Below, one piece after another: positions 33,804 to 47,814 of a stretch of DNA of 47,814 nt; within the stretch, counting starts at the first letter, position 1; each line of letters opens with the position of its first letter. A model generated the notes under the pieces. That model was not told where the DNA came from, did no database searches, and was given only the letters and a program-made list of their open reading frames with translations. Where the stretch lies: NCBI GenBank assembly GCA_018263575.1, contig JAANWX010000056.1, positions 1 through 47,814 on the forward strand. Reading direction: 5' to 3'. The translations under genes were made by a program, and so were the position numbers. Origin of the DNA: Chloroflexota bacterium (GTDB taxonomy: Bacteria > Chloroflexota > Anaerolineae > Anaerolineales > UBA11858).

Positions 33804-35246
33804 ATGCCCAAAACACATCAGAAGCGTCAAACCGATGCCCCTTATGCCCGTATGGGCGGGAAAACTAGTGAACAAATTCATTTAGCAAGTTTAGAAATTT
33901 TAGAGCGCGTGGGCATCGAAGTCCACGATGACAAAGCCAGAGAAATACTTGTGGAGGCGGGCGCCACGACCGAAGGTCAGCGTGTTCTTATTCCTGAACA
34001 CCTGGTCAGCTGGGCCTTGGCGGCGACTCCTGGGCGGATTACCCTGTGTGACCGGCACGGTGATGTTGCTATGCGCGCCTGGGGCTACAACACGTATTTT
34101 GGGGGCGGCTCCGATTGTCTCTATGTCCTCGACCACCGCACTGGCGAGCGGCGCAGGGCGGTGATGGAAGATCTTCGGGAAGCAGTGACCCTCATGGACG
34201 CCCTGCCCAACATCGACTTTGTCATGTCCGCCTTTCTGCCCTCCGACGTGGAGCAGCAGGTTTATGACCTTTACCAAATGGAGGCCATTCTCAACCTGAC
34301 CACTAAACCGCTCGTTTTCGTCACTCCCGATTTCGAGGGCTGCGTGACCGCGGTGGAGATGTGTGAGGCCGTGGCCGGCGGGGAGGAGGCCTTTCGCCAG
34401 CGTCCCTTCGCCACCTGTTATATCAACGTCACCTCTGGCCTGGTCGCCAACGAGGAGGCTCTTCAAAAATGTATCTACCTGGCCGAAAAAGGGCTGCCCT
34501 TGCTTTATATCCCCATCAACGCGGCCGGTGTCAACTCCCCCTCCACCCCGGCGGGATGTATGGCCACTTTGAACGCCGGGACCTTGTTGGGCATTGTCTT
34601 GGCACAGCTCGTGCGGGAAGGAACACCTGTGGGCGTGGTGGGCTGGAATGGCGGGACGTATAACCTGAAGACCATGGTCGCAAACTACGTCCTGGCCGAT
34701 GGACTTGGCATGGCAGCCTCGATGGGCAAGTTTTACGACCTCCCCGTTTTTGGGCTGGGCGGCGCGACCGACTCGAAAGTTTTGGACCAACAATGCGCGG
34801 CCGAAACGACCATCAGCCTCTACACCGCCCACCTCAACGGAGCCAACATCATTCACGATTGCGGCTTCATGGACGCTGGCCTTCAAGGTTCGCTGCAACT
34901 CATCACCATCACCAATGACCTGATCGGCTTCATCCGCGCCGCCACGGCCCCGGTGGAGATCAACGCGGAGACCCTGGCCCTGGACGTGGTGGAAGAGCTC
35001 GGACCGGAGGGGAATTATCTGGCCCATGACCATACCTTCGAGCATTTCCGCGACCCCTATTATTCTGAGCTGGCCGATAAACGCCAATATGATTCGTGGG
35101 TCGAGCAAGGAGCCACCACCATGGAAGAACGCGCCGCCGAGCAGGTGGAGAAAATCCTCGCCGAACACGAGCCAGAACCCCTCCCGGACGATGTGCAAAA
35201 AGCGTTGCGTGCGATCGTTGTGCGAGAGGAGGAGGCGGTTGGGTGA
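33804..35246 (+). CDS. MttB-superfamily methyltransferase, non-pyrrolysine, copy 5
   Basis: 480 aa; FGGGSD, GLGGATDSKVLD, HDCGFMD; AGGAG RBS. Confidence 0.9.
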   Translation: MPKTHQKRQTDAPYARMGGKTSEQIHLASLEILERVGIEVHDDKAREILVEAGATTEGQRVLIPEHLVSWALAATPGRITLCDRHGDVAMRAWGYNTYFGGGSDCLYVLDHRTGERRRAVMEDLREAVTLMDALPNIDFVMSAFLPSDVEQQVYDLYQMEAILNLTTKPLVFVTPDFEGCVTAVEMCEAVAGGEEAFRQRPFATCYINVTSGLVANEEALQKCIYLAEKGLPLLYIPINAAGVNSPSTPAGCMATLNAGTLLGIVLAQLVREGTPVGVVGWNGGTYNLKTMVANYVLADGLGMAASMGKFYDLPVFGLGGATDSKVLDQQCAAETTISLYTAHLNGANIIHDCGFMDAGLQGSLQLITITNDLIGFIRAATAPVEINAETLALDVVEELGPEGNYLAHDHTFEHFRDPYYSELADKRQYDSWVEQGATTMEERAAEQVEKILAEHEPEPLPDDVQKALRAIVVREEEAVG

Positions 35247-35250
35247 GTAG

Positions 35251-35658
35251 GGACTGGGAAACTGGGAAACTGGGAGACTGGGAGACTGGAGACTGGGAGG
35301 CTGGGAGACTGGAGACTGGGAGGCTGGGAGACTGGAGACTGGGAGGCTGGGAGACTGGAAACCAGGGAACCAGGTGACCAGGGACTGGGAGACTGGGAAA
35401 CTGGGGCTAGTACATAGCGGCGTAAATTCATTGAGGGTTAATATTTGCGCTCAAGGTGCGCTGCACTCCCGTTTTTTGGAGTGCATTGCACCTTGAAACC
35501 CCAAGGGATTTCCGCCATGGAGTACTAGGAGACTGGGAAACTGGGAGACTGGGAAACTGGGGCATCAGGAAACCAGGGAACCAGGAAACCAGGTGACTAG
35601 GAGACTAGTGACTAGGAGACTAGTGACTAGGAGACTAAAGACCAGGGACTAGGAGACT
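35251..35658. repeat. Short tandem repeat tract (GGGAGACT/GGAGACT/GGAAACT, GACTAG variants) interrupted by a MITE
   Basis: Dozens of degenerate 7/8-mers. Confidence 0.9.
35407..35528. mobile_element. MITE family B (122 bp) with CTAG ends and internal REP hairpin
   Basis: Left end CTAGTACatagcGGCGtAAAT; right end reverse complement CTAGTACtccatGGCGgAAAT; hairpin at 35452-35495. Confidence 0.7.
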
Positions 35659-35689
35659 AATTAGACCAATAAGACCACCGGAGCAAACC

Positions 35690-36931
35690 ATGACCGACAA
35701 AGACCAATTTTTTATGCGCGAAGCCTGGGAATACGATCCCGGCGCCAAGCCAAAACCGGCCCCTGACGCTCACCTGGGCTTCAACACCCGCGCCCTGCAC
35801 ACTGGGTTTGACCCTTTGAAGAGCGTGAAGGATTTTCGTTCCTTTGTGCCGCCCATCACCCAATCCATGACCTATCCCTATGAACGCTTCGAGGAGATTC
35901 CCTATCCGGTTTATGGGCGCACCCAGACTCCCACCACGGCGGTTTTGGAGGAGCGTTTGGCCGCCTTGGAGGGGGGAGAGGCCTGCGTGACGGCTGGTTC
36001 CGGTTCCCAGGCCCTGTTCGACCTCATCTTCACCCTGACCCGGCCCGGCGACAACGTGGTCACCAGCCTCAACATCTATGGGGAGGGATACAAACAAGCC
36101 ACGGCCATTTTCCCGGAGCGCTGCGGAGTGGATTTTCACTTCGTGGACGACCCCGCCGACCCCGCTTCGTGGGATGCCGCCATTGACGACAAAACCAAGC
36201 TGGTGTGGGTGGAGACGCCCAGCAACCCCTGCCTCTTCGTCACCGACATCGCCGCTGTGGCCGATGTAGCCCACGCCAAGGGCGTTCCCCTGCTGGTGGA
36301 TAACACCACCGCCACGGCCGCCCTCCAAAAACCGATCGCCTTGGGCGCGGATATGGTGCTCCTCTCCATCACCAAATTCCTGTGCGGGAACGCCAGCGTG
36401 CTGGGTGGGGCAGTGGTTGGCCCCGAAGCCCTGGTGGAGGATGTGCGCTGGAACACGACCGAGTTCGTCGGCGCGGTCTTGCAACCTTTCGAGGCCTGGT
36501 TGACGCTCCAATTCTTAGAGACTCTCTCCCTGCGCATGGAGCGGCACAGCGCCAACGCCCAACGGGTGGCCGAGTTCCTGGCCGGGCACCCCCGGGTGGA
36601 GCACGTCAACTACCCCGGGCTGGTCGGCCATCCCCAACATGAACTGGCCCAACGCCAAATGCGGGCTGGCGGGGGGATGTTATCCTTCGTCGCCCCGGGC
36701 GGGATGGCGGGGGCCGGGGCCGTGATCGACCGTTTCCAACTCATCACCCACGCCGTCACCTTCGGGACCAGCCGGACGATCTGCATGCATCCCCCCACCA
36801 TCACCCACGAGCACATGACCCCCGAGGAACGCGCCAAGGCCGGTATCGATGACGGCCTGATCCGCCTCTCCGTTGGCCTGGAAGACCCGGACGACCTGAT
36901 CACCGATTTGGATCAAGCCCTGTCTGGCTAA
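35690..36931 (+). CDS. Cys/Met metabolism PLP-dependent lyase (methionine gamma-lyase / cystathionine lyase family), divergent
   Basis: LAALEGGE, WVETPSNP, VDNT, SITK (PLP Lys), YPGL, IRLSVGLED. Confidence 0.88.
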   Translation: MTDKDQFFMREAWEYDPGAKPKPAPDAHLGFNTRALHTGFDPLKSVKDFRSFVPPITQSMTYPYERFEEIPYPVYGRTQTPTTAVLEERLAALEGGEACVTAGSGSQALFDLIFTLTRPGDNVVTSLNIYGEGYKQATAIFPERCGVDFHFVDDPADPASWDAAIDDKTKLVWVETPSNPCLFVTDIAAVADVAHAKGVPLLVDNTTATAALQKPIALGADMVLLSITKFLCGNASVLGGAVVGPEALVEDVRWNTTEFVGAVLQPFEAWLTLQFLETLSLRMERHSANAQRVAEFLAGHPRVEHVNYPGLVGHPQHELAQRQMRAGGGMLSFVAPGGMAGAGAVIDRFQLITHAVTFGTSRTICMHPPTITHEHMTPEERAKAGIDDGLIRLSVGLEDPDDLITDLDQALSG

Positions 36932-36952
36932 ACAGCAGATTTGATTATTGAA

Positions 36953-36991
36953 AGACAAAACCTCGGTTCAGGGAGCCGGGGCTTTTGTTTT
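36953..36991 (+). terminator. Rho-independent terminator
   Basis: ACAAAACCTCGGTTC-AGG-GAGCCGGGGCTTTTGTTTT. Confidence 0.7.
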
Positions 36992-36998
36992 AAAGGCC

Positions 36999-37057
36999 TT
37001 GACAAAAAGTCCTGATTCCTTGATAATTTCCTAAAGAACATAATATCAGATAATATG
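36999..37057 (+). promoter_or_regulatory. Sigma70-type promoter plus inverted repeat overlapping the FadR start
   Basis: TTGACA-17-GATAAT; CATAATATC-A-GATAATATG at 37039-37057. Confidence 0.6.
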
Positions 37058-37753
37058 ATAAATAAAACCTCTCCCCCTTTCCAAAGAAATACCCTTGTCG
37101 ACAATGTCACCGCTGAACTGCGGCGCATGATCCTGGAGCAAGAGATCATGCCGGGAGAATTTTTGCCAGCCCGCAAGGATTTGGCTGCCCGGTTTGGTGT
37201 CGGGCTTTCCACTATTCAAGAAGGCATACAGGCCCTGGCCGCGGTCGGGATGCTCGAGTCACGCCCCGGAAAAGGGACTTGGGTGCGTGAGGACACCCTG
37301 GATATGCTCATTCATCCCACCACGGTGGAAACTCGTTTGGGTGAGTTGGATATCCAGCAACTCTACGACGCCCGTCTGGTGGTTGAGGTTGGCCTAGCGG
37401 AACTCGCTGCCCAAAACGCCAAACCAGAAGACATCCAAAAAATCCAGGATGCCTTAACGGCCTTGGAAGATTCTCAAGGGGATGATGAGGCCTTCATTGC
37501 CGCCGATCTGGCTTTTCACATCGCGGTAGCCCAGGCCGGGCATAACAAATTATTGGAGCAGTTTTATCACCTTTCCCGCAAACTATTGGAAGAGGTGATC
37601 GCTGAGTTAATCAAACTGCCCTCTGTGAAAGAAAATGGTATACGCATTCAGGGTGAAATTGCCCGGGCTATTCAAGACGCGGATGTTGAGCAAGCACGTC
37701 GAGCCACCCTTGACCACATGGAGATTATTAAAGATCTTATTAAGAAACTATAG
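37055..37753 (+). CDS. FadR/GntR-family regulator
   Basis: PGEFLP...LA.RFGV...IQEG...L...G.LESRPGKGTWV; AD..FH..VA.A.HN. Confidence 0.92.
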   Translation: MINKTSPPFQRNTLVDNVTAELRRMILEQEIMPGEFLPARKDLAARFGVGLSTIQEGIQALAAVGMLESRPGKGTWVREDTLDMLIHPTTVETRLGELDIQQLYDARLVVEVGLAELAAQNAKPEDIQKIQDALTALEDSQGDDEAFIAADLAFHIAVAQAGHNKLLEQFYHLSRKLLEEVIAELIKLPSVKENGIRIQGEIARAIQDADVEQARRATLDHMEIIKDLIKKL

Positions 37754-37787
37754 TGGACGAGTCTTATTCCTAAGGAGAGATGAGAGT

Positions 37788-39227
37788 ATGAAAACTTCCA
37801 ACACAATTGCCTTCCAATCCCCACAATTTGCCGTCCTTTCCGAGAGCCAATTGCGCGACCTGCACCTCGGCGCGTTGGAATTATTGCGGCGGACGGGGAT
37901 CCGCTTCTATCACGACCAGGCCCTAAAGATGCTCGGAGAGGCCGGGGCTTTCGTCTCGGACGGCAACCTGGTCAAATTTCCGGCCCGCATGGTCGAGGAT
38001 GCCCTCGCCACTGTGCCTGAACGGGTCATCATGTGTGACCGGGATGGGGAGCCAGCCGTCTTTTTGGAGGATCATAAAGTCAATTTTGGGACCGGCTCGG
38101 ATTGTATCAATTTCCTTGATCCTGAGACGGGAGAGCATCGCAAGTTCACCCAGGCTGACATTATCAAAGGGTATCACTTATGCGACGCGCTGCCCAATAT
38201 CGATTTTGTGATGTCGATAGGCATCCCCGCCGACGTGGACCCCGGTATCACTTACGATGCGCAAATGGCCCTGATGCTGGAACATACCACCAAGCCCCTC
38301 GTTTTCGTCACTGATGACAAAGCCAGTTGCCAGCGGGCCATCGACATGGCCGCGGCGGTGGCGGGCGGGCACGAGGCTTTGCGAGAGCAGCAGCATATCC
38401 TGCTCTACTCGGAACCCAGTTCCCCCCTCCAACAATCGGAAACAGCCGTGGATAAGCTGCTCTTAATGGCCGAACACGAGCTTCCGGTTGTGCACTCTCC
38501 CGGCCTGTTGATGGGCGGAACGGCCCCGATCACAATGGCCAGCGGGTTGGTGATGTCCATGGCCGAGATTCTCAGTGGGCTGGTCGTCCACCAGATGACC
38601 AACCCCGGCGCGCCCTTCATCTTTGGGGCCGGTCTCCATCACATGGACATGAAGGCCACCCAGATTTGCTATGGCGGCCCCGAATTCCAACTCACCAAGG
38701 CGGCCGTGGCCGAACTGGGACGCTGGTATGGGATGCCCACCTGGGGCTATGCGGGCTGCTCGGACGCCAAGGTCATGGACGAACAAGCGGCGGCGGAAGC
38801 CATGCTCTCGGTGACAATGGCCAAGCTGACGGGCGCCAACCTCATCCACGATGTCGGGTACATGGAAAGCGGCCTGACCACCTCCTTCGAAATGATTGCC
38901 TTGAGCGATGAATTGATAGGCCTGACGGGGAGTTTGATGAAGGGCATTGAGGTCAACGAAGAGACCATGATGCTGGACGAACTGCATGAGATTGGGCCGG
39001 GCGGGCACTTCCTCTCCACCGACGCCACCATGAACCGCTTCCGGGATTTTTGGTACCCGGATATGATCAGCCGCGAGATTCGTGATACCTGGCTAGAGCG
39101 GGACGCAAAACCGCTGGGCCAGCGCCTGAACGAAAAGGTCAAGACCATCATCGCCGAACACCGCCCCCAGCCGTTGGAGAAAGGGAAAAAGGAGAAAGTG
39201 CAGGCCATTCTCGCCCAAGCCGCTTAA
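37788..39227 (+). CDS. MttB-superfamily methyltransferase, non-pyrrolysine, copy 6
   Basis: FGTGSD, YSEPSSPL, HHMDMK, GYAGCSDAK, HDVGYME; closest to copy 3; AAGGAG upstream of ATG 37788. Confidence 0.9.
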   Translation: MKTSNTIAFQSPQFAVLSESQLRDLHLGALELLRRTGIRFYHDQALKMLGEAGAFVSDGNLVKFPARMVEDALATVPERVIMCDRDGEPAVFLEDHKVNFGTGSDCINFLDPETGEHRKFTQADIIKGYHLCDALPNIDFVMSIGIPADVDPGITYDAQMALMLEHTTKPLVFVTDDKASCQRAIDMAAAVAGGHEALREQQHILLYSEPSSPLQQSETAVDKLLLMAEHELPVVHSPGLLMGGTAPITMASGLVMSMAEILSGLVVHQMTNPGAPFIFGAGLHHMDMKATQICYGGPEFQLTKAAVAELGRWYGMPTWGYAGCSDAKVMDEQAAAEAMLSVTMAKLTGANLIHDVGYMESGLTTSFEMIALSDELIGLTGSLMKGIEVNEETMMLDELHEIGPGGHFLSTDATMNRFRDFWYPDMISREIRDTWLERDAKPLGQRLNEKVKTIIAEHRPQPLEKGKKEKVQAILAQAA

Positions 39228-39411
39228 TCCACTAATCTTCGCTAATCTTCGCTAATCTACGCTAATTTAACATATGTCTCTAGGAATTCACGGGGTTATA
39301 CCCAAATTGCTGCTCTGAGGGTGGCTTATGTTAAGCTTAGCAATTCCCCGTATCCCGTCCGCAGGATGTGGCCATCCTGCTCGAGCGTGGTGAAAAAATA
39401 GTATCCAAAAT

Positions 39412-39563
39412 GTGAGCGTTCACTACCCCAAAGAGATAGACTTCAAAAGTCTTCAAAATAGAGCTTGGTGGACCCAAAAGTTCAAAAACGCTTATGAAAC
39501 TTCTCTTAAAACATCCTCTGAGACTTTTGAAGTTTGCGCTAGGGGGAGGGGCTGAATGGTTAC
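39412..39563 (+). mobile_element. MITE family A copy (152 bp) with 8-bp target duplication TCCAAAAT
   Basis: Ends GTGAGCGTTCA / TGAATGGTTAC; direct repeats at 39404-39411 and 39564-39571; near-identical to the reverse complement of 29610-29761. Confidence 0.88.
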
Positions 39564-39641
39564 TCCAAAATAAGTACCCCGCGAAATCCCCAAGAGCCTT
39601 TAACATTTATGTCGATTAGGAATGATAGAAAAGGATCAACT

Positions 39642-40799
39642 ATGAATTTTGCCACCCGCACCCACCACCTCGCTCCGGAAGGCGCTTACCAGGTATTATC
39701 CCGCGCTCAGGAACTGGAAGCCCAGGGACGAGAGATCGTCCATCTTGAGATTGGCCAGCCGGATTTCGCGACGTTTTCTCACGTCAGCTCGGCGGGGATT
39801 CAGGCTATCCGGGACGGCCACACTTGTTACACGCCCCCCGCTGGGATGCCGTCTTTGCGGGCGGCCATCGCCGAAGACGCCGGGAAACGCCGGGGGATGG
39901 ATTTCCGTTCCGAGCAGGTAGTCGTCAGCCCGGGCGCGAAGCCCAACTTGTTCTTCCCCACCCTGGCCCTGGTCGAGCCGGGTGATGAGGTGATCTACCC
40001 CAACCCTGGATTCCCCACCTACCAGGCCATGATCGGCATCGCGGGCGGCGTCCCGGTGCCGGTTCCCCTGCTGGAAGAAAAGGGCTTCTCCTTCGATTTG
40101 GAGGCCTTCGACGCCCTGATCAATGAGCGCACGAAGTTGATCATCCTCAACTCCCCCAGCAACCCCACTGGCGGCATTATGCCCCTGGCGGATTTGGAGC
40201 ACATTGCCGAAGCGGCCCGGCGCTATGACTGCTGGGTTCTCTCAGATGAGATTTATACCCGCCTGGTCTATGACGGGGTGGAAGCCCCCTCGATTGCGGC
40301 CTTGCCCGGCATGGTGGAGCGCACGGTGATCATGGACGGGTTCTCGAAGACTTACTCCATGACCGGTTGGCGGTTGGGGTACGGGATTATGCCCGAGTCC
40401 CTGGCGGATAAGGTGGGGCTATTGTTGACCCATTCGGTGGGATGCACGGCCCATTTCACCCAATACGCGGGAATCGAAGCCCTCACCGGCCCGCAGGAGG
40501 AGGTGGAGGAGATGGTGGCGGAATACGCCCGCCGCCGGGAGGTGATCGTGGCGGGATTGAACGCCCTCCCCGGCGTGACCTGCCAAAACCCGCAGGGAGC
40601 ATTTTACGTTTTCCCCAACATCCGGGCGCTGGGAAAATCCTCCCACGAGGTGGCGGATTGGCTGCTGGAGGAAGCGGGCGTGGCGCTCTTGCCCGGTTCG
40701 GCCTTTGGGGAATACGGTGAGGGGTATTTGCGGCTCTCGTATGCCAACTCAGTGGAGAATATCGAGCTGGCTTTGGAGCGGATGGGGGATGTGCTTTAA
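39642..40799 (+). CDS. Class I/II PLP-dependent aminotransferase (AspC-like)
   Basis: IGQPDF, NSPSNPTG, SDEIY, GFSKTYSMTGWRLG, GAFYVF. Confidence 0.93.
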   Translation: MNFATRTHHLAPEGAYQVLSRAQELEAQGREIVHLEIGQPDFATFSHVSSAGIQAIRDGHTCYTPPAGMPSLRAAIAEDAGKRRGMDFRSEQVVVSPGAKPNLFFPTLALVEPGDEVIYPNPGFPTYQAMIGIAGGVPVPVPLLEEKGFSFDLEAFDALINERTKLIILNSPSNPTGGIMPLADLEHIAEAARRYDCWVLSDEIYTRLVYDGVEAPSIAALPGMVERTVIMDGFSKTYSMTGWRLGYGIMPESLADKVGLLLTHSVGCTAHFTQYAGIEALTGPQEEVEEMVAEYARRREVIVAGLNALPGVTCQNPQGAFYVFPNIRALGKSSHEVADWLLEEAGVALLPGSAFGEYGEGYLRLSYANSVENIELALERMGDVL

Positions 40800-40804
40800 C
40801 GCAG
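40754..40804 (+). repeat. 51-bp direct repeat, copy 1 (aminotransferase 3' end)
   Basis: Identical to 42056-42106. Confidence 0.92.
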
Positions 40805-40858
40805 CGGCGCGGAGAGGCGGGGGATTTTTTGCCAACAACACTCAAATGATCTAAGCAA

Positions 40859-40887
40859 CATGCGGAAGTGACAGTCACTTCCGCATG
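40859..40887. repeat. Perfect palindrome CATGCGGAAGTGAC-A-GTCACTTCCGCATG
   Basis: 14-bp arms. Confidence 0.8.
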
Positions 40888-41078
40888 CAGCTATCCAAAT
40901 GAAATTCTCCCCCCACCCGTCTTCTGGGTGACTACTCAATCCCGAAAAAATTATGTTATACTCTATTGAAGATAAGTTGAACATCATTTCCCTGCTCCCG
41001 GACATGGCACATGTGATTTAAGTACACTGAGGAAGAAATAGTAAGAAGCGATCGCTCTCACGCTTTAAGACAGATAAA

Positions 41079-41909
41079 ATGAAACAATTCAAACGTTCAA
41101 TTCGAAATTATTTTGTAGATGAGTCTGGGGATGGTGTTTTGTTCAACCGAAAGGGTCGGATCATTGTAGGTGAACGGGGGTGCTCAAAATTCTTTATCCT
41201 CGGTTTTGTAGATATTCCCAACCTTGCAGATATTACTAGTGAGTTAAATGCTCTGCGCGTTCAGTTATTGGCTGATCCCTATTTCCTAGATGTTCCTTCA
41301 ATGCAACCTGAAACGCACAAAACGGCTGAAGCTTTTCATGCCAAGGATGACTTACCTGAGGTACGGAAGGAAGTCTTTACACTCTTACGCCAACATCAAA
41401 TCCACTTTTCGGCTGTAGTGCGGGACAAGCAACAATTGCTTAGTTATGTAAAACAACGCAACAAACATGACGATAGTTATCGCTACCATCCCAACGAATT
41501 GTACGACTATCTAGTACGTCGCTTGTTTAAGACACGGCTTCATAAAGATGATGAGTACAATATCTATTTCGCCAAGCGAGGAAAATCTGATCGCACGACT
41601 GCTCTGTTACAGGCTTTACAAACAGCCCGTCATCGCTTTTGTAAGCAGCATAATATTGAGAATCAGTCGCTTATCAACGTAATACCCACAACACCCAAAC
41701 ATTGTGTCGGACAGCAAGTTGTAGATTATTTTCTGTGGGCCTTACAACGTTTCTACGAACGCGGTGAAACTCGCTTTATTCATTTATTGTGGGACTCAGT
41801 TAGCGTGGTGCATGACTTGGATGATACACGCCAAGCTGCTTATGGAGTATATTACACAAGCAAAAAGCCGCTAACAGTAGCAGCTTTAGAGAACAGGCGG
41901 GGGATATAG
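41079..41909 (+). CDS. DUF3800 domain protein
   Basis: N-terminal FVDESG, FHAK, C-terminal QVVD (QxxD); lower GC than flanks. Confidence 0.8.
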   Translation: MKQFKRSIRNYFVDESGDGVLFNRKGRIIVGERGCSKFFILGFVDIPNLADITSELNALRVQLLADPYFLDVPSMQPETHKTAEAFHAKDDLPEVRKEVFTLLRQHQIHFSAVVRDKQQLLSYVKQRNKHDDSYRYHPNELYDYLVRRLFKTRLHKDDEYNIYFAKRGKSDRTTALLQALQTARHRFCKQHNIENQSLINVIPTTPKHCVGQQVVDYFLWALQRFYERGETRFIHLLWDSVSVVHDLDDTRQAAYGVYYTSKKPLTVAALENRRGI

Positions 41910-41966
41910 GAACCCAAAACCAAGGTCTAGGATTCACACGGCTTGGAGCCGAATTTCGTCCCCTGC
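41897..41966 (+). ncRNA. Candidate DUF3800-associated structured RNA overlapping the stop codon
   Basis: GCGGGGGAT pairs with GTCCCCTGC and encloses two hairpins. Confidence 0.45.
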
Positions 41967-42055
41967 TCTGGGATTATAATACACAAATTTTAGATAGTTG
42001 TCAAGTTGTTGGCGTTGTTTTCGCGAATTGCCAAAAAACCCGGTTCAGTCTTTAG

Positions 42056-42106
42056 GGAGAATATCGAGCTGGCTTTGGAGCGGATGGGGGATGTGCTTTA
42101 ACGCAG
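42056..42106 (+). repeat. 51-bp direct repeat, copy 2
   Basis: Identical to 40754-40804. Confidence 0.92.
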
Positions 42107-42402
42107 AGGGGTGGAGAAGGGGAGAACGCCCAGTCGTGATTTGTAGGTCGTTAATGATCAAAGCGAGGCAGCCTAGACTGTCTCGCTTTTTGCTTTAAAC
42201 CGATGAGCTTCTCATTAGCACCCAAACCTGATTGGCAAATAGGGTTTACTCACCTGCAATCAAGGTATTAAAGCGATTCCCCAAAGTGCCAAAGACACAA
42301 TTTTGGAAGACGCCGCCGAACGCGATACCGTTTGTAGTATTACAGCCTGAACCAGCAAACCAAACACCTGCGCGATATCTCTGCTATCACCCACCTCATA
42401 TC

Positions 42403-42449
42403 TTGACAAAACATATAATAATATTTATGATAATATTTATAAATATTAT
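42403..42449 (+). promoter_or_regulatory. Promoter and 20-bp perfect palindromic operator candidate for the iscS-like operon
   Basis: TTGACA-17-TATGAT; ATAATATTTATAAATATTAT at 42430-42449. Confidence 0.7.
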
Positions 42450-42483
42450 AAAAGCACCTATTAAGAGGGAGCGTTGAGAACCT

Positions 42484-43650
42484 ATGTTTGGAGACCTGGT
42501 TTATTTAGATAATTCGGCTGCCACGCGCCTGGATGAGCGCGTGCTGGAGGCCATGCGGCCCTATTTTTTGGAAACCTACGCGGTGGCCACCTCCCAGTTT
42601 GGGTACTCGGCAGGGATTGAATCCCGGGAAGCCCTGGAGGGTGCTCGGGAGTCGATCGCGGCCCGTTTGGGCGCTAAGCGGGAGGAATTCCTGTTCACGT
42701 CCGGCAGCACGGAGTCGAGCAACATGGCCCTGAAAGGGGTAGCCCTGGCCTTGGGGGAGAAGAAGGGCCGGCATATCATCACCACCAAAATTGAAGATTT
42801 CCCCGTCTTGTACAGCGCACGTTCCCTGGGTAGACGCGGCTTCGAGATCACCTACCTGGATGTCGACGAGACTGGCCGCCTTGACCTGGATCAACTCCGG
42901 GATGCTATCCAAGCGGAGACCATTCTCGTCTCGGTTCAGGCCGCCAACCAGGAGATCGCCACCTTGCAGGATATTGAATCCATTGCCAAGATTTGCCAGG
43001 AGCGGGACGCCCTCTTTCATACCGATGCTACCCACACCTTCCCGCGCCTGCCGCTTAATGTGGGGGAAGTGCCGGTGGATCTGGTCACGGTCGCCTCGCA
43101 CCTCATCCACGGCCCCAAGGGGGTGGGCGGTCTTTACGTGCGGGAGAGGACTCCCCTCACCAAGTGGATGGATGGTGGGTTCCAGGAGTTCAACCTCCGG
43201 GCCGGAGCGGAAAACATCCCCGGCGCGGTGGGGTTTGCCAAAGCGGTGGAACTGGTCACTCTTGAAGAAACGTCCCGCCTGCGTGACATGCGCGACCGTC
43301 TGACGGAACGCTTGCTGGGAATCCCCCACGCCCGGCTCAACGGGCATCCCTCCCTGCGTTTGCCGCATAACACCAATGTCTCCTTCCGCTTTGTGGAGGG
43401 GGAATCGATTTTGCTGCACCTGGACATGCGCGGTTTTGCCGTCAGCACCGGATCGGCGTGTTTTAGCCGCTCCCTGGAGGCCAGCCACGTGATTATGGGC
43501 ATTGGCGGCAACCACGAACAAGCTCATGGCTCGGTGCGTTTCACGTTTGGGCGCTTCAACACCATGGACGATGTGGACGCGGTGGCGGGAGCGATCACCG
43601 AAGTAATTGAGAAATTACGGGAAATAAGCCCTTTGGGAAAGGATGAGTAG
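42484..43650 (+). CDS. IscS/NifS-like protein lacking the PLP-binding lysine
   Basis: YLDNSAAT, FTSGSTES, HTDA, SHLIHGPKG (canonical HK..GPKG), STGSAC, GSVRF. Confidence 0.9.
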   Translation: MFGDLVYLDNSAATRLDERVLEAMRPYFLETYAVATSQFGYSAGIESREALEGARESIAARLGAKREEFLFTSGSTESSNMALKGVALALGEKKGRHIITTKIEDFPVLYSARSLGRRGFEITYLDVDETGRLDLDQLRDAIQAETILVSVQAANQEIATLQDIESIAKICQERDALFHTDATHTFPRLPLNVGEVPVDLVTVASHLIHGPKGVGGLYVRERTPLTKWMDGGFQEFNLRAGAENIPGAVGFAKAVELVTLEETSRLRDMRDRLTERLLGIPHARLNGHPSLRLPHNTNVSFRFVEGESILLHLDMRGFAVSTGSACFSRSLEASHVIMGIGGNHEQAHGSVRFTFGRFNTMDDVDAVAGAITEVIEKLREISPLGKDE

Positions 43651-43652
43651 TT

Positions 43653-44291
43653 ATGACACAATTACCCTATACTGAAACTGTCATGGAGCATTTCAAGAAC
43701 CCCCAGAATGTGGGCCGCATTGAAAACCCGGACGCGAAATCTGTGGAAGGCAGCCCATCGTGTGGTGATATGGTGGCTTTGTATTTGCTTGTCGATGAAG
43801 ACACGCAAACCATTACCGATATTAAATTTGAATCCTACGGCTGCGCTTCCAATATTGCCACGGGATCCATAATCACTGAGCTTGCTAAGGGCAGAACGTT
43901 GGAAAAGGCGAAAGACATCACCTGGAAAGAGGCGACCGAAGCGCTGGGTGGTCTCCCGCCCATTAAGACGCATTGTTCCATTTTGGCGGTGGATGGTTTG
44001 CGGGCTGCCATAGAAAACTATGAAGAAAAACACGGCCTGGTCAAAGAACGGGTCCCCACCACGAAGAATGTGGTTGTTAAACGCCTCAAACGAGTCATGA
44101 ACCCCATTGTTGGCCTGGATTTAGTGCGCACCAAGTTGGTTGATGATATTGAAGTTGAGGATGGGGTAGTTCGCGTTGAGATCAAGTTAGCGGAAGATCA
44201 CCAATTTGCGCCCAATATCCGCGAGGAAATTCATGAGAAACTTGACCACCTTTGGGATGTTGAAAAGGTGGTCGTCACTTACGAAGCGTAG
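43653..44291 (+). CDS. iscU: IscU/NifU-N scaffold fused to a degenerate DUF59 (SufT-like) domain
   Basis: HFKNPQNVG, CGD, GCAS, PPIKTHC; C-terminal LKRVMNPIVGLDLV...V..IEVEDG.V. Confidence 0.85.
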   Translation: MTQLPYTETVMEHFKNPQNVGRIENPDAKSVEGSPSCGDMVALYLLVDEDTQTITDIKFESYGCASNIATGSIITELAKGRTLEKAKDITWKEATEALGGLPPIKTHCSILAVDGLRAAIENYEEKHGLVKERVPTTKNVVVKRLKRVMNPIVGLDLVRTKLVDDIEVEDGVVRVEIKLAEDHQFAPNIREEIHEKLDHLWDVEKVVVTYEA

Positions 44292-44299
44292 GAGAAACT

Positions 44300-44521
44300 A
44301 TGGCTGAAATCAAGATTGATATCCGGGGTGAGACCTGCCCGGTCCCCCTGGTTGAAACCCGCAAAGCAGTCCGCCACGCCGAGGTGGGGGATATTATCGA
44401 AGTCACCGGCACGCACCCGACCTCCAGAAAGGAGATTCCGATGGCTGTTGAGGCCCTATCCTTGACGTTATTGAGCAACGAAGGCACAGATACGGAATGG
44501 GTGATTCGCATTCGCCGATAA
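44300..44521 (+). CDS. tusA: TusA/SirA-family sulfur carrier
   Basis: 73 aa; DIRGETCPVP. Confidence 0.88.
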   Translation: MAEIKIDIRGETCPVPLVETRKAVRHAEVGDIIEVTGTHPTSRKEIPMAVEALSLTLLSNEGTDTEWVIRIRR

Positions 44522-44554
44522 GCAATCGGGGACTAGGAACTAAAGGAGCATACT

Positions 44555-44995
44555 ATGACCCAAGAACAGAAGGCTTCCCCAGAACAAGCTACCATTGTCC
44601 TGCATAGTGGGGATATGGACAAAGTTTACAGCGCCCTGATCGTTGCCAATGGCGCCTTGGCGATGGGCATGGAGGCTTCCATTTATTTCACATTCTGGGG
44701 GCTGCAACGCCTGGAAAAGGGCGGCCTAGAAAAAGGCCCTCTCTCCAAGATGCACCTTTTTGGACTGGGGAAGTGGATGATCAAACAGCGCATGAAAAAG
44801 TCCAATGTAGCCAAATTAGAGCGTTTGATGAATGACTTCAAAACCTTGGGCGGGCGGATCATCGCTTGCGAAATGACCATGGACATTATGGGCATCGATG
44901 CCGATGACTTACGCCAAGATTGGATTGACGAATATGGCGCGGTGGGGACGTATGTTCAAGAGGCACGCAAATCGGAGATCACGCTCTTTATTTAG
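44555..44995 (+). CDS. DsrE2 (DsrE/DsrF/DrsH-like) sulfur-relay protein
   Basis: SGDMDK, FTFWGL, IACEMTMDIMG, LFI terminus. Confidence 0.88.
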   Translation: MTQEQKASPEQATIVLHSGDMDKVYSALIVANGALAMGMEASIYFTFWGLQRLEKGGLEKGPLSKMHLFGLGKWMIKQRMKKSNVAKLERLMNDFKTLGGRIIACEMTMDIMGIDADDLRQDWIDEYGAVGTYVQEARKSEITLFI

Positions 44996-45105
44996 GGGGT
45001 ACTATCGCTCGTAACCAATCGAGAAAAATCGCGCCGCTTTCCCAACGGGGCGGCGGATGAGCCGCAGGTTCGTCTGCATAAAGGCCGAGTCCAGTCACCC
45101 GCGTC

Positions 45106-45702
45106 CTACCGACTACTTTCTTTTACATACACAAAAAGGGCCATCTCGACGTCGGCGGCAAACCACTTTCCGCCATCTCTGCCCAGCGGGTTACGCACGC
45201 CAAGCCGTTGGAGTAGAGCGGCGACTTTTTGGCAATCGTCGGAAAAGCGCTGATAACCGCGACTATTGAGAGGATAGCCCAACATTTCTGATAATGTGCT
45301 GTCAAGGACAGGGCACACGTCGGGACGCAACAGGCGCAGGTGCTTCGATGAAAATGATACCCCCAGGTGCCGCACTCGCCGCACGGCACGCAGTGCGCTT
45401 TGAACGTCGGGCGGGTCTAGAGATAGGGCCGCTATTGCACTGTCAAACTGGCGTTGGATGTCCGGCCAGGCGTTCTGTCCGAGAACCCGTGCCGCGGTCC
45501 CTGGATAGCCGCCCCACGCGCATACACTCCGTATGAAATCGCTCAACTGCTGCCGCGAAAAGTTGGTCAACAACTGCCTTGCCTCGACCTCTAGCGACAT
45601 TGTCTTTTCTACCTGCGGGTGACGTTCGACAAGCCCTGTGAAAGCCCCAGGTTGCACAGGGCTTCCTGCAACGATGATAACTTGATCTGTAATTTGTAGC
45701 AT
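45106..45702 (-). CDS. Hypothetical protein with HhH-GPD/OGG glycosylase-like motifs
   Basis: WGG, LGVSFSSKHLRLLRP...PVLD, W.AADVEMALF; AAGGA upstream of ATG 45702. Confidence 0.55.
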   Translation of the reverse strand: MLQITDQVIIVAGSPVQPGAFTGLVERHPQVEKTMSLEVEARQLLTNFSRQQLSDFIRSVCAWGGYPGTAARVLGQNAWPDIQRQFDSAIAALSLDPPDVQSALRAVRRVRHLGVSFSSKHLRLLRPDVCPVLDSTLSEMLGYPLNSRGYQRFSDDCQKVAALLQRLGVRNPLGRDGGKWFAADVEMALFVYVKESSR

Positions 45703-45783
45703 ATGCCCAAATCCTTGGCTATGGGCTACAGCGTCCGACCAACCGCGCTGTGGCCATCGTTTGAAAAAACTACTTTCGCTTTT

Positions 45784-46025
45784 GCGAAGCACCCTCTTGA
45801 GGGACTGGTCGAGGGTACTGGTAGGCGTTGGGGATTTCGCTCTACGGTGTACAGCCCATGGGCTAGTGCGTGCCATCGGCAAAAACATTCTGAAATAAAG
45901 TGATTTGTAGGGAAGTATTTTGCTGGACCAGGTGTCTTTTTTACCACGACTCTCCGCTTTTTCTTTGCGATAGAAGAATTTTACTTGTTTTCGACTTTAC
46001 CCCTAGCGAAGCACCCTCTTGAGGG
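45784..46025. repeat. Two 20-bp direct repeats GCGAAGCACCCTCTTGAGGG (45784-45803 and 46006-46025)
   Basis: Exact match, 222-bp period. Confidence 0.85.
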
Positions 46026-46062
46026 TTGTCACTGCAATTCATCGGTAGGCAAATTTCTATAT

Positions 46063-46683
46063 CTAAGACGCTTTATAATCTCTCCGCTTCACAAATTCGT
46101 CTGCTATGCTTTCAAAAAACATCTTTACATGCTTTTCAACTACTTTCTTTGATCCTTCAACCAACTTTAATTTGTTTTTTCGATAATCTTTTATACGCCA
46201 ATCTAGAACCAGTTTTGGCATGTTTTTTTTATACTCATCGTCAATTTCAAGAGATAGTTCTTCATAAGCGTTGTATATCCCGTAACTTACATCTAAACGA
46301 TCTTTTTTGGCATCATTAAAAACGGCTCGATGAGTGTTTAAATGCCTTGCATCGATTACTGCTTTAAACTTGGAATAGTAAGAATTAAGAATAGGATATG
46401 CTTTGCTTTTTTTGATTTCATCTCTGTCTTTTAAATTATCCCAAGAACAGTCTCTTTCGGGTATTCCTAACTCATAAATTGCATTTAACATCAATTTCAT
46501 TAATTCAAGTATTGTGTGTATCTTGTGCATAAATACTTCGAAGTGATATTGAGAATAAACAAGTTGGTTTATATCGTTTTCTTCGTAGAATTTTCGGGCG
46601 GGAAAACGTCTTAAGAAGACTTCAATATATTTCAGGTTGTTTACGATTTCATTAATTTTTGTGAAGTAGCCAAAGGTTGTCAT
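46063..46683 (-). CDS. HEPN-domain protein (Cthe_2314-like), possibly 5'-truncated
   Basis: RHLNTH (RxxxxH), YHFE, all-alpha character, markedly AT-rich. Confidence 0.65.
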   Translation of the reverse strand: MTTFGYFTKINEIVNNLKYIEVFLRRFPARKFYEENDINQLVYSQYHFEVFMHKIHTILELMKLMLNAIYELGIPERDCSWDNLKDRDEIKKSKAYPILNSYYSKFKAVIDARHLNTHRAVFNDAKKDRLDVSYGIYNAYEELSLEIDDEYKKNMPKLVLDWRIKDYRKNKLKLVEGSKKVVEKHVKMFFESIADEFVKRRDYKAS

Positions 46684-46699
46684 TACATACTTTCCCCTT

Positions 46700-47326
46700 C
46701 ATCCACTGTCACTTTTTTTATTACCAAAAATATGGTAGATTCCCTTTATAGGATTATAGGAATAACTTACAAAAAAAGGAGAATCTATCATGCGCAAACA
46801 ACTATACCGTACTTTAACAGCCGAACTAGAGAGACAACTGCCTGGAAGCAGTAAGCCGCAAGTGCAAAACCTTGCTTTACTGACACAGGCGTTGGTATTC
46901 AGCCCAGACTGCCACCTGTCGAATCTGGCTCTGGAGTTGCCAATTCCTGGACAGCGAGAGAATCTCACCCAGAGATTGCGCCGTTTGTTGAAAAACAACC
47001 ATGTCAGATGGCGGACCCATTACTTTCCTCTGGTCAAAGAGTTACTGGCTCACTGGCCAGATCGGGAGGTCAACCTAGTGATGGACCGCACCGACATCCG
47101 ACAAGAGAAGAGCATTCTGATGCTGGCTTTGGCCTTCAAGCATCGGGCGTTGCCCTTAATTTGGGAGGTATTGCTCTTCGGTAGCACCGGAGAAGAGCTA
47201 CAGTTGACATTGCTGAAAACAATAGCCCCTTATCTTCCATCTGTGAACCAGAAGCGCATCTGCTTTTTCGGCGACAGCGGGTTTCGGGCTGTGGCTCTGC
47301 AACGTTATTGCCGGCAAAAAGAGTGG
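46700..47326 (+). mobile_element. Truncated IS4-superfamily element; transposase N-terminal fragment begins at 46790
   Basis: QRLRRLLKN, LVMDRT, RALPLIW, FGDSGF (first two Asp of DDE); similarity ends at KEWAW; left end coordinate is approximate. Confidence 0.75.
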
Positions 47327-47714
47327 GCCTGGCTTCCCACCAGACGACCGGCGCTATATCTCCCTCCAGGAAATGCACGGTAAACTTGTCACATGCAACT
47401 TGAAGCCCGCTACCCCTCCAAAAGGAAACGGGCCTGCACGTACCTTCCGAATCCCTGGAGTGCCTGGCACGGTGGGTTTCATCTCCCCGCTGGGGGAACA
47501 TTTCTGCGAAAGCTGCAACCGCTTGCGGCTGACCGCGGATGGTGCGCTGCGCCCTTGTCTGCTGATGGACACCGAAATCTCGGTCCGCGAGAGTGTAGGA
47601 AATGATGAACTGACTCGAAAAATTTCACAGGCAATCGCCCTCAAACCCGAGAGACACGGACTTACCCGCCAAAATCACCTCGAAGTCCAGTGCATGGCTC
47701 AAATCGGGGGATAA
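47325..47714 (+). pseudogene. moaA: 3' fragment of GTP 3',8-cyclase
   Basis: VGFISPLGEHFCESCNRLRLTADG.LRPCL and MAQIGG terminus; radical SAM N-terminal half absent. Confidence 0.88.
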
Positions 47715-47814
47715 GCTAGAATTAGAGAAGACCCAAGGAGTGGCCTCTCAGGCCAAATGAGAGATATCTACAAAAAATGCCTAAATGCTCCCCTCCCAAC
47801 CAGGACCACCCCAC

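Follow-up and report, generated by a model that had tools for sequence, protein, structure and literature searches.

An operon in a Chloroflexota bacterium joins an IscS homolog without a pyridoxal phosphate pocket to an IscU-DUF59 scaffold, TusA, and a DsrE2-like protein

We analyzed a 47,814-nucleotide (nt) stretch of DNA from a Chloroflexota bacterium (contig JAANWX010000056.1 of assembly GCA_018263575.1; referred to here as the window) and focused on a four-gene operon on its forward strand, at 42484-44995. The genes are ordered iscS*, iscU::DUF59, tusA, and a dsrE2-like gene, with intergenic gaps of 2, 8, and 33 nt. IscS* is our designation for the first product, a homolog of the cysteine desulfurase IscS that lacks the Schiff-base lysine of the pyridoxal 5'-phosphate (PLP) cofactor. 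Open reading frames and Pfam matches at these positions agree with the four-gene operon proposed in an initial annotation of the window.

42484-43650, + strand: iscS*, 388 amino acids (aa); type-I IscS/NifS fold; PF00266 Aminotran_5, 4e-66 over residues 6-367
43653-44291, + strand: iscU::DUF59 fusion, 212 aa; NifU_N (PF01592), 2.7e-41, and FeS_assembly_P/DUF59 (PF01883), 2.3e-11
44300-44521, + strand: tusA, 73 aa; PF01206, 2.8e-19; Cys13 in C-P-V-P
44555-44995, + strand: DsrE2-like gene, 146 aa; DrsE_2 (PF13686), 1e-34; Cys105

Within iscS*, four codons correspond to functional positions of the canonical enzymes.

42796-42798, + strand: Asp105 codon, at the position of the PLP-stacking His104 of Escherichia coli IscS
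43033-43035, + strand: His184 codon, at the position of Gln183, a hydrogen-bond partner of PLP O3'
43102-43104, + strand: Leu207 codon CTC, at the position of the Schiff-base Lys206 of E. coli IscS
43459-43461, + strand: Cys326 codon, in the mobile loop VSTGSACFSRSL, which is 99-100% conserved in 195 orthologs

At 43093-43122 the DNA reads GCC TCG CAC CTC ATC CAC GGC CCC AAG GGG, that is, A-S-H-L-I-H-G-P-K-G. Leu207 aligns with Asp199 of Archaeoglobus fulgidus IscS (PDB 4eb5; E = 1.5e-98) and with the lysine of the D199K mutant of that protein (4r5f). The DNA and these alignments bear out the initial reading of ASHLIHGPKG with Leu (CTC) at the PLP-lysine position, and the IEDFPV (Asp105), DATH (His184), and STGSAC (Cys326) motifs reported with it are all present.

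We compared alignment columns between 195 distinct orthologs (from the 120 closest database proteins and 80 genome loci) and 128 canonical relatives. Because the canonical relatives were chosen for carrying Lys207, His105, and Cys326, their values of 100% at positions 105 and 207 are a product of selection.

Position 34: Asn in 98% of canonical relatives; Val in 97% of the clade
Position 75 (phosphate-loop Gly): Gly in 80% of canonical relatives; Ser in 82% of the clade
Position 105: His in 100% of canonical relatives (selected); Asp in 97% and Asn in 3% of the clade, with Asp in 80/80 loci
Position 152: Met in 84% of canonical relatives; Gln in 100% of the clade
Position 156: Asn in 97% of canonical relatives; Gln in 99% of the clade
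Position 184: Gln in 98% of canonical relatives; His in 99% of the clade
Position 207: Lys in 100% of canonical relatives (selected); Leu in 76%, Thr in 23%, Arg and Val in 1% each, and Lys in 0% of the clade
Position 242: Thr in 98% of canonical relatives; variable (Glu, Val, Ala, or Ser) in the clade

At positions 34, 105, 156, 184, 207, and 242, which are 97-100% invariant in the 128 canonical relatives, IscS* of the window carries V, D, Q, H, L, and A, so that none of the six is canonical. The loss is therefore wider than the Lys, His, and Gln replacements first remarked upon, with N34, G75, N156, and T242 replaced as well. Passages of PMC9978102 describe H104, D180, Q183, K206, and C328 of E. 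coli IscS as each indispensable and Asn155 as lining the pocket; three of these five indispensable residues are replaced in IscS*, since Asp105, His184, and Leu207 differ. The equivalents of E. coli Asp180, Cys328, and Arg354 (D181, C326, and R352) are 100% conserved, and S/T76 and His206 are also retained. Residues invariant in the clade and specific to it are D105, Q152, Q156, H184, H209, F327, R329, and H312.

The fold is preserved. An AlphaFold (AF2) model of IscS* has a mean predicted local distance difference test score (pLDDT) of 92.7 and a predicted template-modeling score (pTM) of 0.91, with low confidence only in the Cys loop (325-330), and Foldseek places the model at template-modeling (TM) scores of 0.93 to 0.95 to NFS1, A. 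fulgidus IscS, and E. coli IscS. The protein scores below every NCBIfam equivalog cutoff, though nearest to NifS (432 bits versus a cutoff of 530.75) and IscS (373.9 versus 548 and 363.6 versus 643.2). IscS* is thus a type-I cysteine desulfurase homolog by sequence and fold that has neither the Schiff-base lysine (Leu207) nor the equivalents of His104, Gln183, and Asn155 (Asp105, His184, and Gln156). It has lost the PLP pocket, while the fold, the Cys326 loop, D181, and R352 stay.

The best solved match for both IscS* and its IscU partner is A. fulgidus IscS2-IscU (PDB 4eb5, 4eb7, and 4hvk; D199K, 4r5f). The two IscS proteins have in common the type-I fold, the missing Schiff-base lysine, a mobile-loop Cys, and adjacency to IscU. 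According to parts of PMC7585200, PMC8918507, and PMC13066941, A. fulgidus IscS has no desulfurase activity, and its Cys is a [2Fe-2S] cluster ligand; PMC8918507 further describes, in part, that it binds pyridoxamine phosphate (PMP). Absence of a cofactor therefore cannot follow from loss of the lysine alone. IscS* might still depend on PLP or PMP, either via Lys212 or Lys227 or with a noncovalently held cofactor as in A. fulgidus IscS, a possibility consistent with the PMP retained by that lysine-less protein, with the preserved D181, S/T76, H206, and R352, and with the conservation of Lys227 (99% in the clade versus Pro in 62% of canonical relatives). Lys212, the lysine of GPKG, was rejected as a substitute Schiff-base residue: it is 95% conserved in canonical enzymes, so its presence is not compensatory, and it is replaced in 15/80 loci (Arg in 14, His in 1). 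The equivalents of the stacking His, Gln183, Asn155, and Thr243 are all replaced in IscS*, whereas A. fulgidus IscS keeps the equivalents of Asn34, the stacking His, and Asn156 (FGNPSS, VEHMSV, and ANNEIG) and has Ser for Thr242. The pocket loss in IscS* is the more radical of the two, and we regard continued cofactor dependence as very improbable.

The 195 orthologs are 67-100% identical, come mostly from several classes of Chloroflexota, and have intact frames. None carries Lys at position 207; among the 80 genome loci, Lys207 occurs in none, and Asp105 and Cys326 occur in all. By label, 77 of these loci are Chloroflexota (52 Anaerolineae, 5 Dehalococcoidia, 2 Thermoflexia, 1 Chloroflexia, 1 Ardenticatenia, and 16 unclassified), 2 are unclassified bacteria, and 1 is a Methanobacteriaceae contig; a representative at 64% identity is labeled Thermacetogeniaceae. 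The initial annotation had noted that close orthologs keeping the lysine would point to recent decay. The missing catalytic lysine and the location of the operon in a variable island (see below) would fit a gene in decay, a relic or pseudogene that a mutation has inactivated recently. We reject recent decay, to which we assign a negligible probability, on the clade-wide absence of the lysine (0/195 across several classes), the intact frames at 67-100% identity, and the many invariant clade-specific residues. The pattern of conservation instead indicates that IscS* is under purifying selection.

The partner proteins retain their functional residues. In the IscU domain (approximately residues 6 to 127), Cys37, Asp39, Cys64, His107, Cys108, and an LPPIK motif supply the three Cys, Asp, His, and LPPVK-like sequence of an IscU scaffold. 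Cys37, Cys64, and Cys108 are kept in 71 to 73 of 74 aligned IscU matches, the shortfall being partial or cut matches and one Phe at Cys64. The domain scores below the NCBIfam IscU and NifU equivalog cutoffs, and its best solved match is the IscU chain of the A. fulgidus 4eb5 complex (1.7e-35). The DUF59 domain (approximately residues 140 to 206; PF01883, 44.3 bits versus a cutoff of 23.5) has Ala in place of its conserved Cys (FAP versus the FCP of a stand-alone DUF59), a replacement that had escaped the initial annotation. No Cys occurs in this domain of the window protein and no Cys-rich column in the ortholog alignment; a D-H-Q-F-A motif is conserved instead of the Cys-Pro motif. An AF2 model of the fusion protein has a pLDDT of 92.3 and a pTM of 0.84. 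TusA has its Cys13 in 69/69 matches, with C13-P-V-P invariant in 61/61 sequences, and scores almost equally, below cutoff, against the NCBIfam YedF (36 bits) and TusA (34 bits) equivalogs. The DsrE2-like protein combines the PF13686 domain with a conserved Cys105 (52/53 matches) and falls below the NCBIfam SulfCarrDsrE2 equivalog (67.2 bits versus 210). The retention of the IscU Cys residues, the TusA CPxP motif, and the DsrE2 Cys, first read from the window alone, thus extends across the orthologous loci.

The partner genes are linked to iscS* in most of the 80 genome loci.

Full-length IscU::DUF59: 71/80 loci
TusA: 68/80 loci, plus 1 partial
DsrE2-like gene: 52/80 loci, plus 1 partial
IscU::DUF59, TusA, and DsrE2 together: 51/80 loci

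In six of the nine loci without a full IscU::DUF59, the contig breaks off no more than 235 nt from iscS*. In Dehalococcoidia the gene order is tusA-dsrE2-iscS*-iscU::DUF59. Further genes recur on the same strand as iscS*.

4Fe-4S ferredoxin upstream of iscS*, same strand: 23/80 loci, within about 100 nt in 17 of the 23
Crp/Fnr regulator upstream, same strand: 13/80 loci
Ferritin between iscS* and iscU, same strand: 11/80 loci
Glutaredoxin and ferredoxin-thioredoxin reductase (FTR)-like::rubredoxin pair downstream of iscS*, same strand: 20/80 loci, usually after dsrE2
YHS protein, same strand: 5/80 loci
Persulfide-dioxygenase/rhodanese fusion, same strand: 3/80 loci
Cys-Cys protein (…DPCCASFKGGGGHV…) of 81-89 aa, without a Pfam match, between tusA and dsrE2: 7/80 loci, including L026 (7653-7895) and L042 (7135-7401)

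The window locus is the four-gene core alone, and the accessory neighbors of its relatives were not found elsewhere in the window genome with the queries used. The gene content could also be read as a sulfur-trafficking or detoxification unit serving tRNA or cofactor thiolation or the handling of sulfane sulfur or selenium, with IscS* and IscU as carriers or a sensor. TusA and DsrE-family proteins do serve many sulfur-transfer routes, TusA here scores alike against YedF and TusA, and the persulfide-dioxygenase/rhodanese fusion joins the cluster at three loci. Such a role is improbable given that all IscU cluster ligands and LPPIK are kept, that the scaffold carries a fused DUF59, which passages of PMC4982691 link to iron-sulfur (Fe-S) maturation, that ferritin, ferredoxin, and rubrerythrin recur as neighbors in relatives, and that the loci examined show no recurring thiolation enzyme.

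We followed the loss of the lysine in two sequence sets. The first started from the query and the 150 best representatives at 50% identity and retained 148 near-full-length rows; the lysine is missing in 17 of these, and well-supported branches force at least five changes. The second comprised 80 metagenome loci retrieved with the sister protein P0123 as seed. The TusA search model was built from Chloroflexota orthologs and may miss distant TusA proteins, and many metagenome contigs are short; with these limits, TusA was found in 0/48 canonical loci (signature N-H-N-Q-K-T) and in 3/12 loci (L135, L137, and L140) of an independent lysine-less lineage that reads AADQFYGPKG and keeps Asn34 and His105. 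The remaining 20 loci, with a residue other than Asn at position 34, belong to what we term family X; IscU::DUF59 occurs in 15, TusA in 10, and DsrE2 in 5. Lys207 is kept in 12 of these 20 (eleven of which also keep His105) and missing in 8.

Maximum-likelihood inference on 68 sequences after removal of the six trait columns (short search; support by the Shimodaira-Hasegawa-like approximate likelihood ratio test [SH-aLRT] only), recovers family X as a clade of 32 rows (99%), of which 22 lack the lysine and 10 keep it (nine with His105). Nested inside it lies the V-D-Q-H clade of the query (12 rows, 100%), which is lysine-less throughout. Outside family X lie the AADQ clade (100%) and, with 99% support, an A. 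fulgidus-like clade that includes P0144. The lysine state changes 10 times on this tree, at least six of the changes being forced, including those in the sister pairs L102/L120 and L105/L111 within the TusA-linked family. By this tree, lysine loss is recurrent within family X, and its repetition indicates that catalysis is dispensable there. The tree therefore qualifies two earlier proposals. That a non-Lys residue together with Asp105 defines a clade holds (12/12 rows), as does its co-conservation with iscU::DUF59, tusA, and dsrE2 (51/80 loci); a linkage specific to the loss does not, because family X members that keep the lysine carry the linkage too, so that it predates the loss. The suggested likeness to A. 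fulgidus IscS stands insofar as both are lysine-less IscS homologs, but the two fall in separate clades.

As a separate observation on the AADQ lineage (L133, L135, L137, L139-L142, L144, L145, L153, L156, and L162), the four long loci that we read (L137, L142, L144, and L153) are arranged Nfu - IscS - IscU (186 aa) - (TusA) - NadA - rubrerythrin.

Our preferred reading, which we hold as somewhat probable, is that the operon encodes an accessory, mobile Fe-S assembly module in which a PLP-free IscS* is the partner of IscU::DUF59 and a TusA/DsrE2 relay feeds in sulfur. The module would be a horizontally mobile and minimal ISC (MIS/IscS-IscU) type. IscS* would no longer bind PLP or desulfurate cysteine but would keep its dimeric type-I fold and Cys326 loop; the A. 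fulgidus IscS-IscU pair suggests, by analogy, that it may serve as a docking platform for IscU::DUF59, with Cys326 acting as the fourth cluster ligand or as a persulfide shuttle. Sulfur would enter as protein-bound sulfane sulfur via TusA, upstream of which the DsrE2-like protein could optionally act as a carrier, and would pass to Cys326 or directly to IscU. In the fuller transcription units of many relatives, ferritin could provide an iron store and the 4Fe-4S ferredoxin electrons, and the FTR-like protein, glutaredoxin, and ferredoxin could together reduce persulfide to sulfide. The operon thus suggests Fe-S cluster building without cysteine breakdown by IscS*. The E. coli IscS-TusA relay (PDB 3lvj) likewise combines an IscS fold with a CPxP TusA, and the IscS* model matches the 3lvj IscS at a TM score of 0.93-0.94. 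In E. coli sulfur moves from IscS to TusA, whereas in the window the flow would have to be reversed if IscS* and TusA interact at all, because IscS* is predicted to be unable to make persulfide. A predicted complex of IscS* with TusA gave a median score of 0.10 (mark, 0.32), a value that says nothing for or against the pairing.

Several observations weigh against this reading. To the PMP of A. fulgidus IscS and the conserved Lys227 noted above may be added that family X members keeping both Lys and His also have TusA and DsrE2, so that the relay cannot be read as compensating specifically for the lost lysine. No IscU was found within 5 kb of IscS* in L051, L054, and L087; in L054, which is annotated, a ferredoxin and a stand-alone DUF59 lie upstream and ferritin-like, glutaredoxin, and FTR-like genes lie downstream, and tblastn indicates the same in L051 and L087. 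DsrE2 was not found in 27/80 loci, 16 of which have iscU::DUF59 and tusA; some of the remaining DsrE2-less loci end soon after iscS*. The distribution is also patchy: in an even sample of 301 Chloroflexota genomes, 6 carry an ortholog with at least 67% identity, none of the 6 being among the five unpublished genomes in the sample, and the operon has no DNA match in any of 36 same-genus genomes. Finally, the window genome (G000; 2.71 Mb, 90.7% complete) encodes other enzymes of this kind, namely, SufS (SAHKMCGPTG), whose gene lies between sufD and sufU; a canonical IscS/NifS (GAHKFYGPKG, IEHHAV, and DAVQ), an orphan on contig C70 with no adjoining IscU gene; and a 497-aa lysine-bearing class-V enzyme. 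In view of these three, the module is not needed for housekeeping in this genome, and its TusA could be loaded from cysteine.

The same architecture could accordingly be fed by cysteine, with the orphan IscS/NifS or SufS persulfurating TusA, TusA/DsrE2 delivering the sulfur to IscS*-IscU::DUF59, and IscS* acting as a mere adaptor. The only NifU_N domains in the window genome are those of the module IscU and SufU; no IscU gene adjoins the canonical IscS/NifS, and the module tusA is the only TusA-family gene found there. In E. coli, the acceptance of persulfide from IscS by TusA is established, as described in part of PMC13066941, and 8 of 10 module-bearing genomes scanned with PF00266 have at least one strong canonical Aminotran_5 match. 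Set against this, the orphan IscS is unlinked to the module, and the repeated loss of the lysine in the family points to the general availability of some other sulfur supply. The same PF00266 scan detected no other IscS/SufS-type gene in the two remaining genomes, the Dehalococcoidia-type G168 (1.4 Mb, 97% complete) and G350 (1.9 Mb), an absence that counts against cysteine feeding as a general rule but not for G000. Besides IscS*, each has one weak PF00266 match (97.7 and 98.5 bits, respectively); in G168 it is a 362-aa aminotransferase without a Cys loop, and in G350 it is known from its score alone. IscS* of G168 reads SAHTLHGPKG, IEDFPV, and DATH. We consider cysteine feeding unlikely overall, albeit the most serious competitor of our preferred reading. 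The initial proposal of a cysteine-independent system is a plausible conjecture for the module; it is tentative for the window genome and better supported in G168 and G350.

A bolder version of the preferred reading is that the former PLP pocket has been rebuilt as a candidate site for iron or a sulfur species in a cysteine-independent line drawing on environmental sulfane sulfur via TusA/DsrE2, so that IscS* would also be a metal or sulfide donor. The side chains of this candidate site (Asp105, Gln152, Gln156, Asp181, His184, His206, and His209) are 91-100% conserved in the clade; Asp181, His206, and partly His209 are common in canonical enzymes too. We regard this version as doubtful. Equally doubtful, taken jointly, is its extension to the fuller loci, in which iron would come from ferritin and electrons from ferredoxin, the FTR-like protein, and glutaredoxin, and the module together with a minimal SufBC would replace all cysteine desulfurases in some Dehalococcoidia. 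G168 and G087 (= G353; 1.7 Mb), both small Dehalococcoidia-type genomes, have a single SufB-type (SUFBD_core) gene, resembling SMS.

Parts of this picture are already known, namely, lysine-less IscS proteins (A. fulgidus and Methanosarcina acetivorans IscS1) and the IscU::DUF59 fusion. M. acetivorans IscS1, without the catalytic lysine, is presented in parts of PMC7585200 as having a proposed A. fulgidus-like role and as uncharacterized, being recovered in inclusion bodies. The A. fulgidus system differs from the window operon in that IscS* belongs to a separate lineage and that the window IscU is fused to a Cys-less DUF59; in the window, TusA and DsrE2 are encoded beside IscS*-IscU. MIS, as outlined in portions of PMC13066941 and PMC12192291, consists of MisS and MisU, an IscS-like and IscU-like pair without chaperones or an A-type carrier; the window likewise has adjacent IscS-like and IscU-like genes without chaperone or carrier genes. 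MisS is described as a working cysteine desulfurase, whereas IscS*, judged by its residues, is without the catalytic ones, and the window adds sulfur carriers. The S5 architecture of SufT/DUF59 proteins, a U-type scaffold fused to DUF59, accounts for 5 of 761 SufT homologs in the survey partly quoted from PMC4982691, in which the conserved Cys is present in every homolog surveyed; the window DUF59 differs from these in its Ala at that position and its conserved D-H-Q-F-A. SMS (SmsCB), a sulfide-using system described in passages of PMC12192291, offers a precedent for assembling Fe-S clusters with no cysteine desulfurase. Its scaffold family is unrelated, and a single SufB-type gene of the kind noted above stands beside the module in G168 and G087.

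The sulfur-trafficking systems of sulfur oxidizers such as Allochromatium and Metallosphaera, built on TusA, DsrE2, and DsrE3, offer a further parallel, with TusA beside a PF13686 DsrE2-family protein that has one conserved Cys. The window differs from them in that no dsr or hdr genes lie near the operon, the DsrE2-like protein falls below the DsrE2 cutoff, and the partners are Fe-S scaffold proteins. A NIR_SIR-family sulfite reductase was not found in the window genome, in which two rhodanese domains are present. A second DsrE2-like gene lies on contig C46 (L090, 1489-2402, - strand; 170 aa; 128.8 bits to PF13686), where its neighbors are a DsrC/TusE-like protein (102 aa, C-terminal PTGCI) and a 219-aa protein of unknown function.

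In the literature searched, and allowing for earlier mentions, we found no account of an IscS family with the whole PLP pocket dismantled, of a fixed TusA and DsrE2 linkage to such an IscS/IscU family, or of this family's recurrent lysine loss, its mobility, or its status as sole IscS/SufS homolog in some genomes. How an IscS-IscU pair with an inactive IscS builds clusters is posed as an open question for A. fulgidus in part of PMC8918507. Because sulfur carriers share the operon, the present family gives a concrete and testable answer, to which relatives add an iron store and a reductant encoded in the module. Four implications follow from the comparisons above: (i) loss of the catalytic lysine is recurrent in MIS-type desulfurases and can extend to the whole PLP pocket; (ii) the module seems to move between Chloroflexota, Firmicutes, and a methanogen; (iii) in at least two small genomes IscS* is the only IscS/SufS homolog found, with an SMS-like SufBC beside it in the one checked (G168); and (iv) the current annotation of IscS* proteins as "cysteine desulfurase" is probably wrong and would inflate the inferred capacity for cysteine-based sulfur mobilization in Chloroflexota.

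The genomic setting bears on mobility. No IscS* ortholog was found in 30 relatives at E ≤ 1e-120. Three same-genus genomes (G313, G314, and G317) are syntenic with the window at 34043-40799, at 71-77% DNA identity, and many others of the genus match the aminotransferase gene. Because this synteny stops before the operon, the operon sits in a species-specific island.

40800-47814: species-specific island with the operon; same-genus genomes are syntenic up to about 40800; GC content 0.492, versus 0.576 at 34000-40800

The operon was probably acquired horizontally. Contamination of the metagenome-assembled genome was considered as a cause of its absence from same-genus genomes and rejected on the synteny of 34043-40799 with the three genomes. 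The island also holds a DUF3800 gene (41079-41909), an OGG-like gene (45106-45888, - strand; 24 bits versus a cutoff of 27), and a Cthe_2314-like HEPN gene (HEPN_Cthe2314; 46063-46683, - strand), flanks that point to a defense or mobile-element neighborhood.

A complete tusA-dsrE2-iscS*-iscU::DUF59 module also occupies 4241-6891 of L080, a 259-kb contig of the Methanobacteriaceae archaeon UBA587. Its IscS* is 70% identical to that of the window and groups with the Dehalococcoidia copies in the tree, and its GC content (0.42) is close to the 0.38-0.39 of its flanks, the low GC of the archaeal contig. This case looks like cross-domain transfer rather than misbinning.

Upstream of iscS*, the window contains candidate expression signals.

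42403-42431, + strand: promoter-like TTGACA-17 nt-TATGAT, 11/12 consensus matches, about 50 nt before the iscS* start
42418-42449: inverted repeat of 11 nt without mismatch, ATAATATTTAT / ATAAATATTAT, that overlaps the -10 region; candidate operator at consensus level only
42463-42471, + strand: AAGAGGGAG, a Shine-Dalgarno-like site apparent from the sequence itself, 12 nt before the ATG

Five promoter-like sites were found, versus 2.8 ± 1.7 in shuffled sequences, so that the site at 42403-42431 is to be read as a consensus match only. The closest locus, L010, retains TTTATAAATATTAT downstream of its own TTGACA. No riboswitch or leader RNA was found over 41800-45300, where Rfam at E ≤ 1 gave two chance-level matches. 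In 19 of 78 orthologous loci (L024, L026, L045, L047, L050, L052, L053, L055, L057, L059-L061, L063, L070, L072, L075, L077, L082, and L083), a different element, TTTCTAAC(R)CAAATTTAATAGA-N6-7-TTGACTTTAT-N14-TG(n)TATAAT, lies 76-226 nt upstream of iscS*. It is a shared promoter that may include a regulator site; it is absent before the window operon, and no + strand match to it was found in the genome.

In the syntenic part of the contig, a gene of the MttB family (trimethylamine methyltransferase-like; 37635-39227, 8.4e-91) forms a 530-aa frame with no in-frame stop. Between it and the aminotransferase gene lies a repeat of about 150 bp (39407-39564) that recurs at 91-97% identity in at least seven other places in the window genome (C7, C9, C10, C34, C69, C95, and C74:29610-29761). 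A copy about 80-84% identical is present in the same-genus genome G334, and the repeat resembles a miniature inverted-repeat transposable element.

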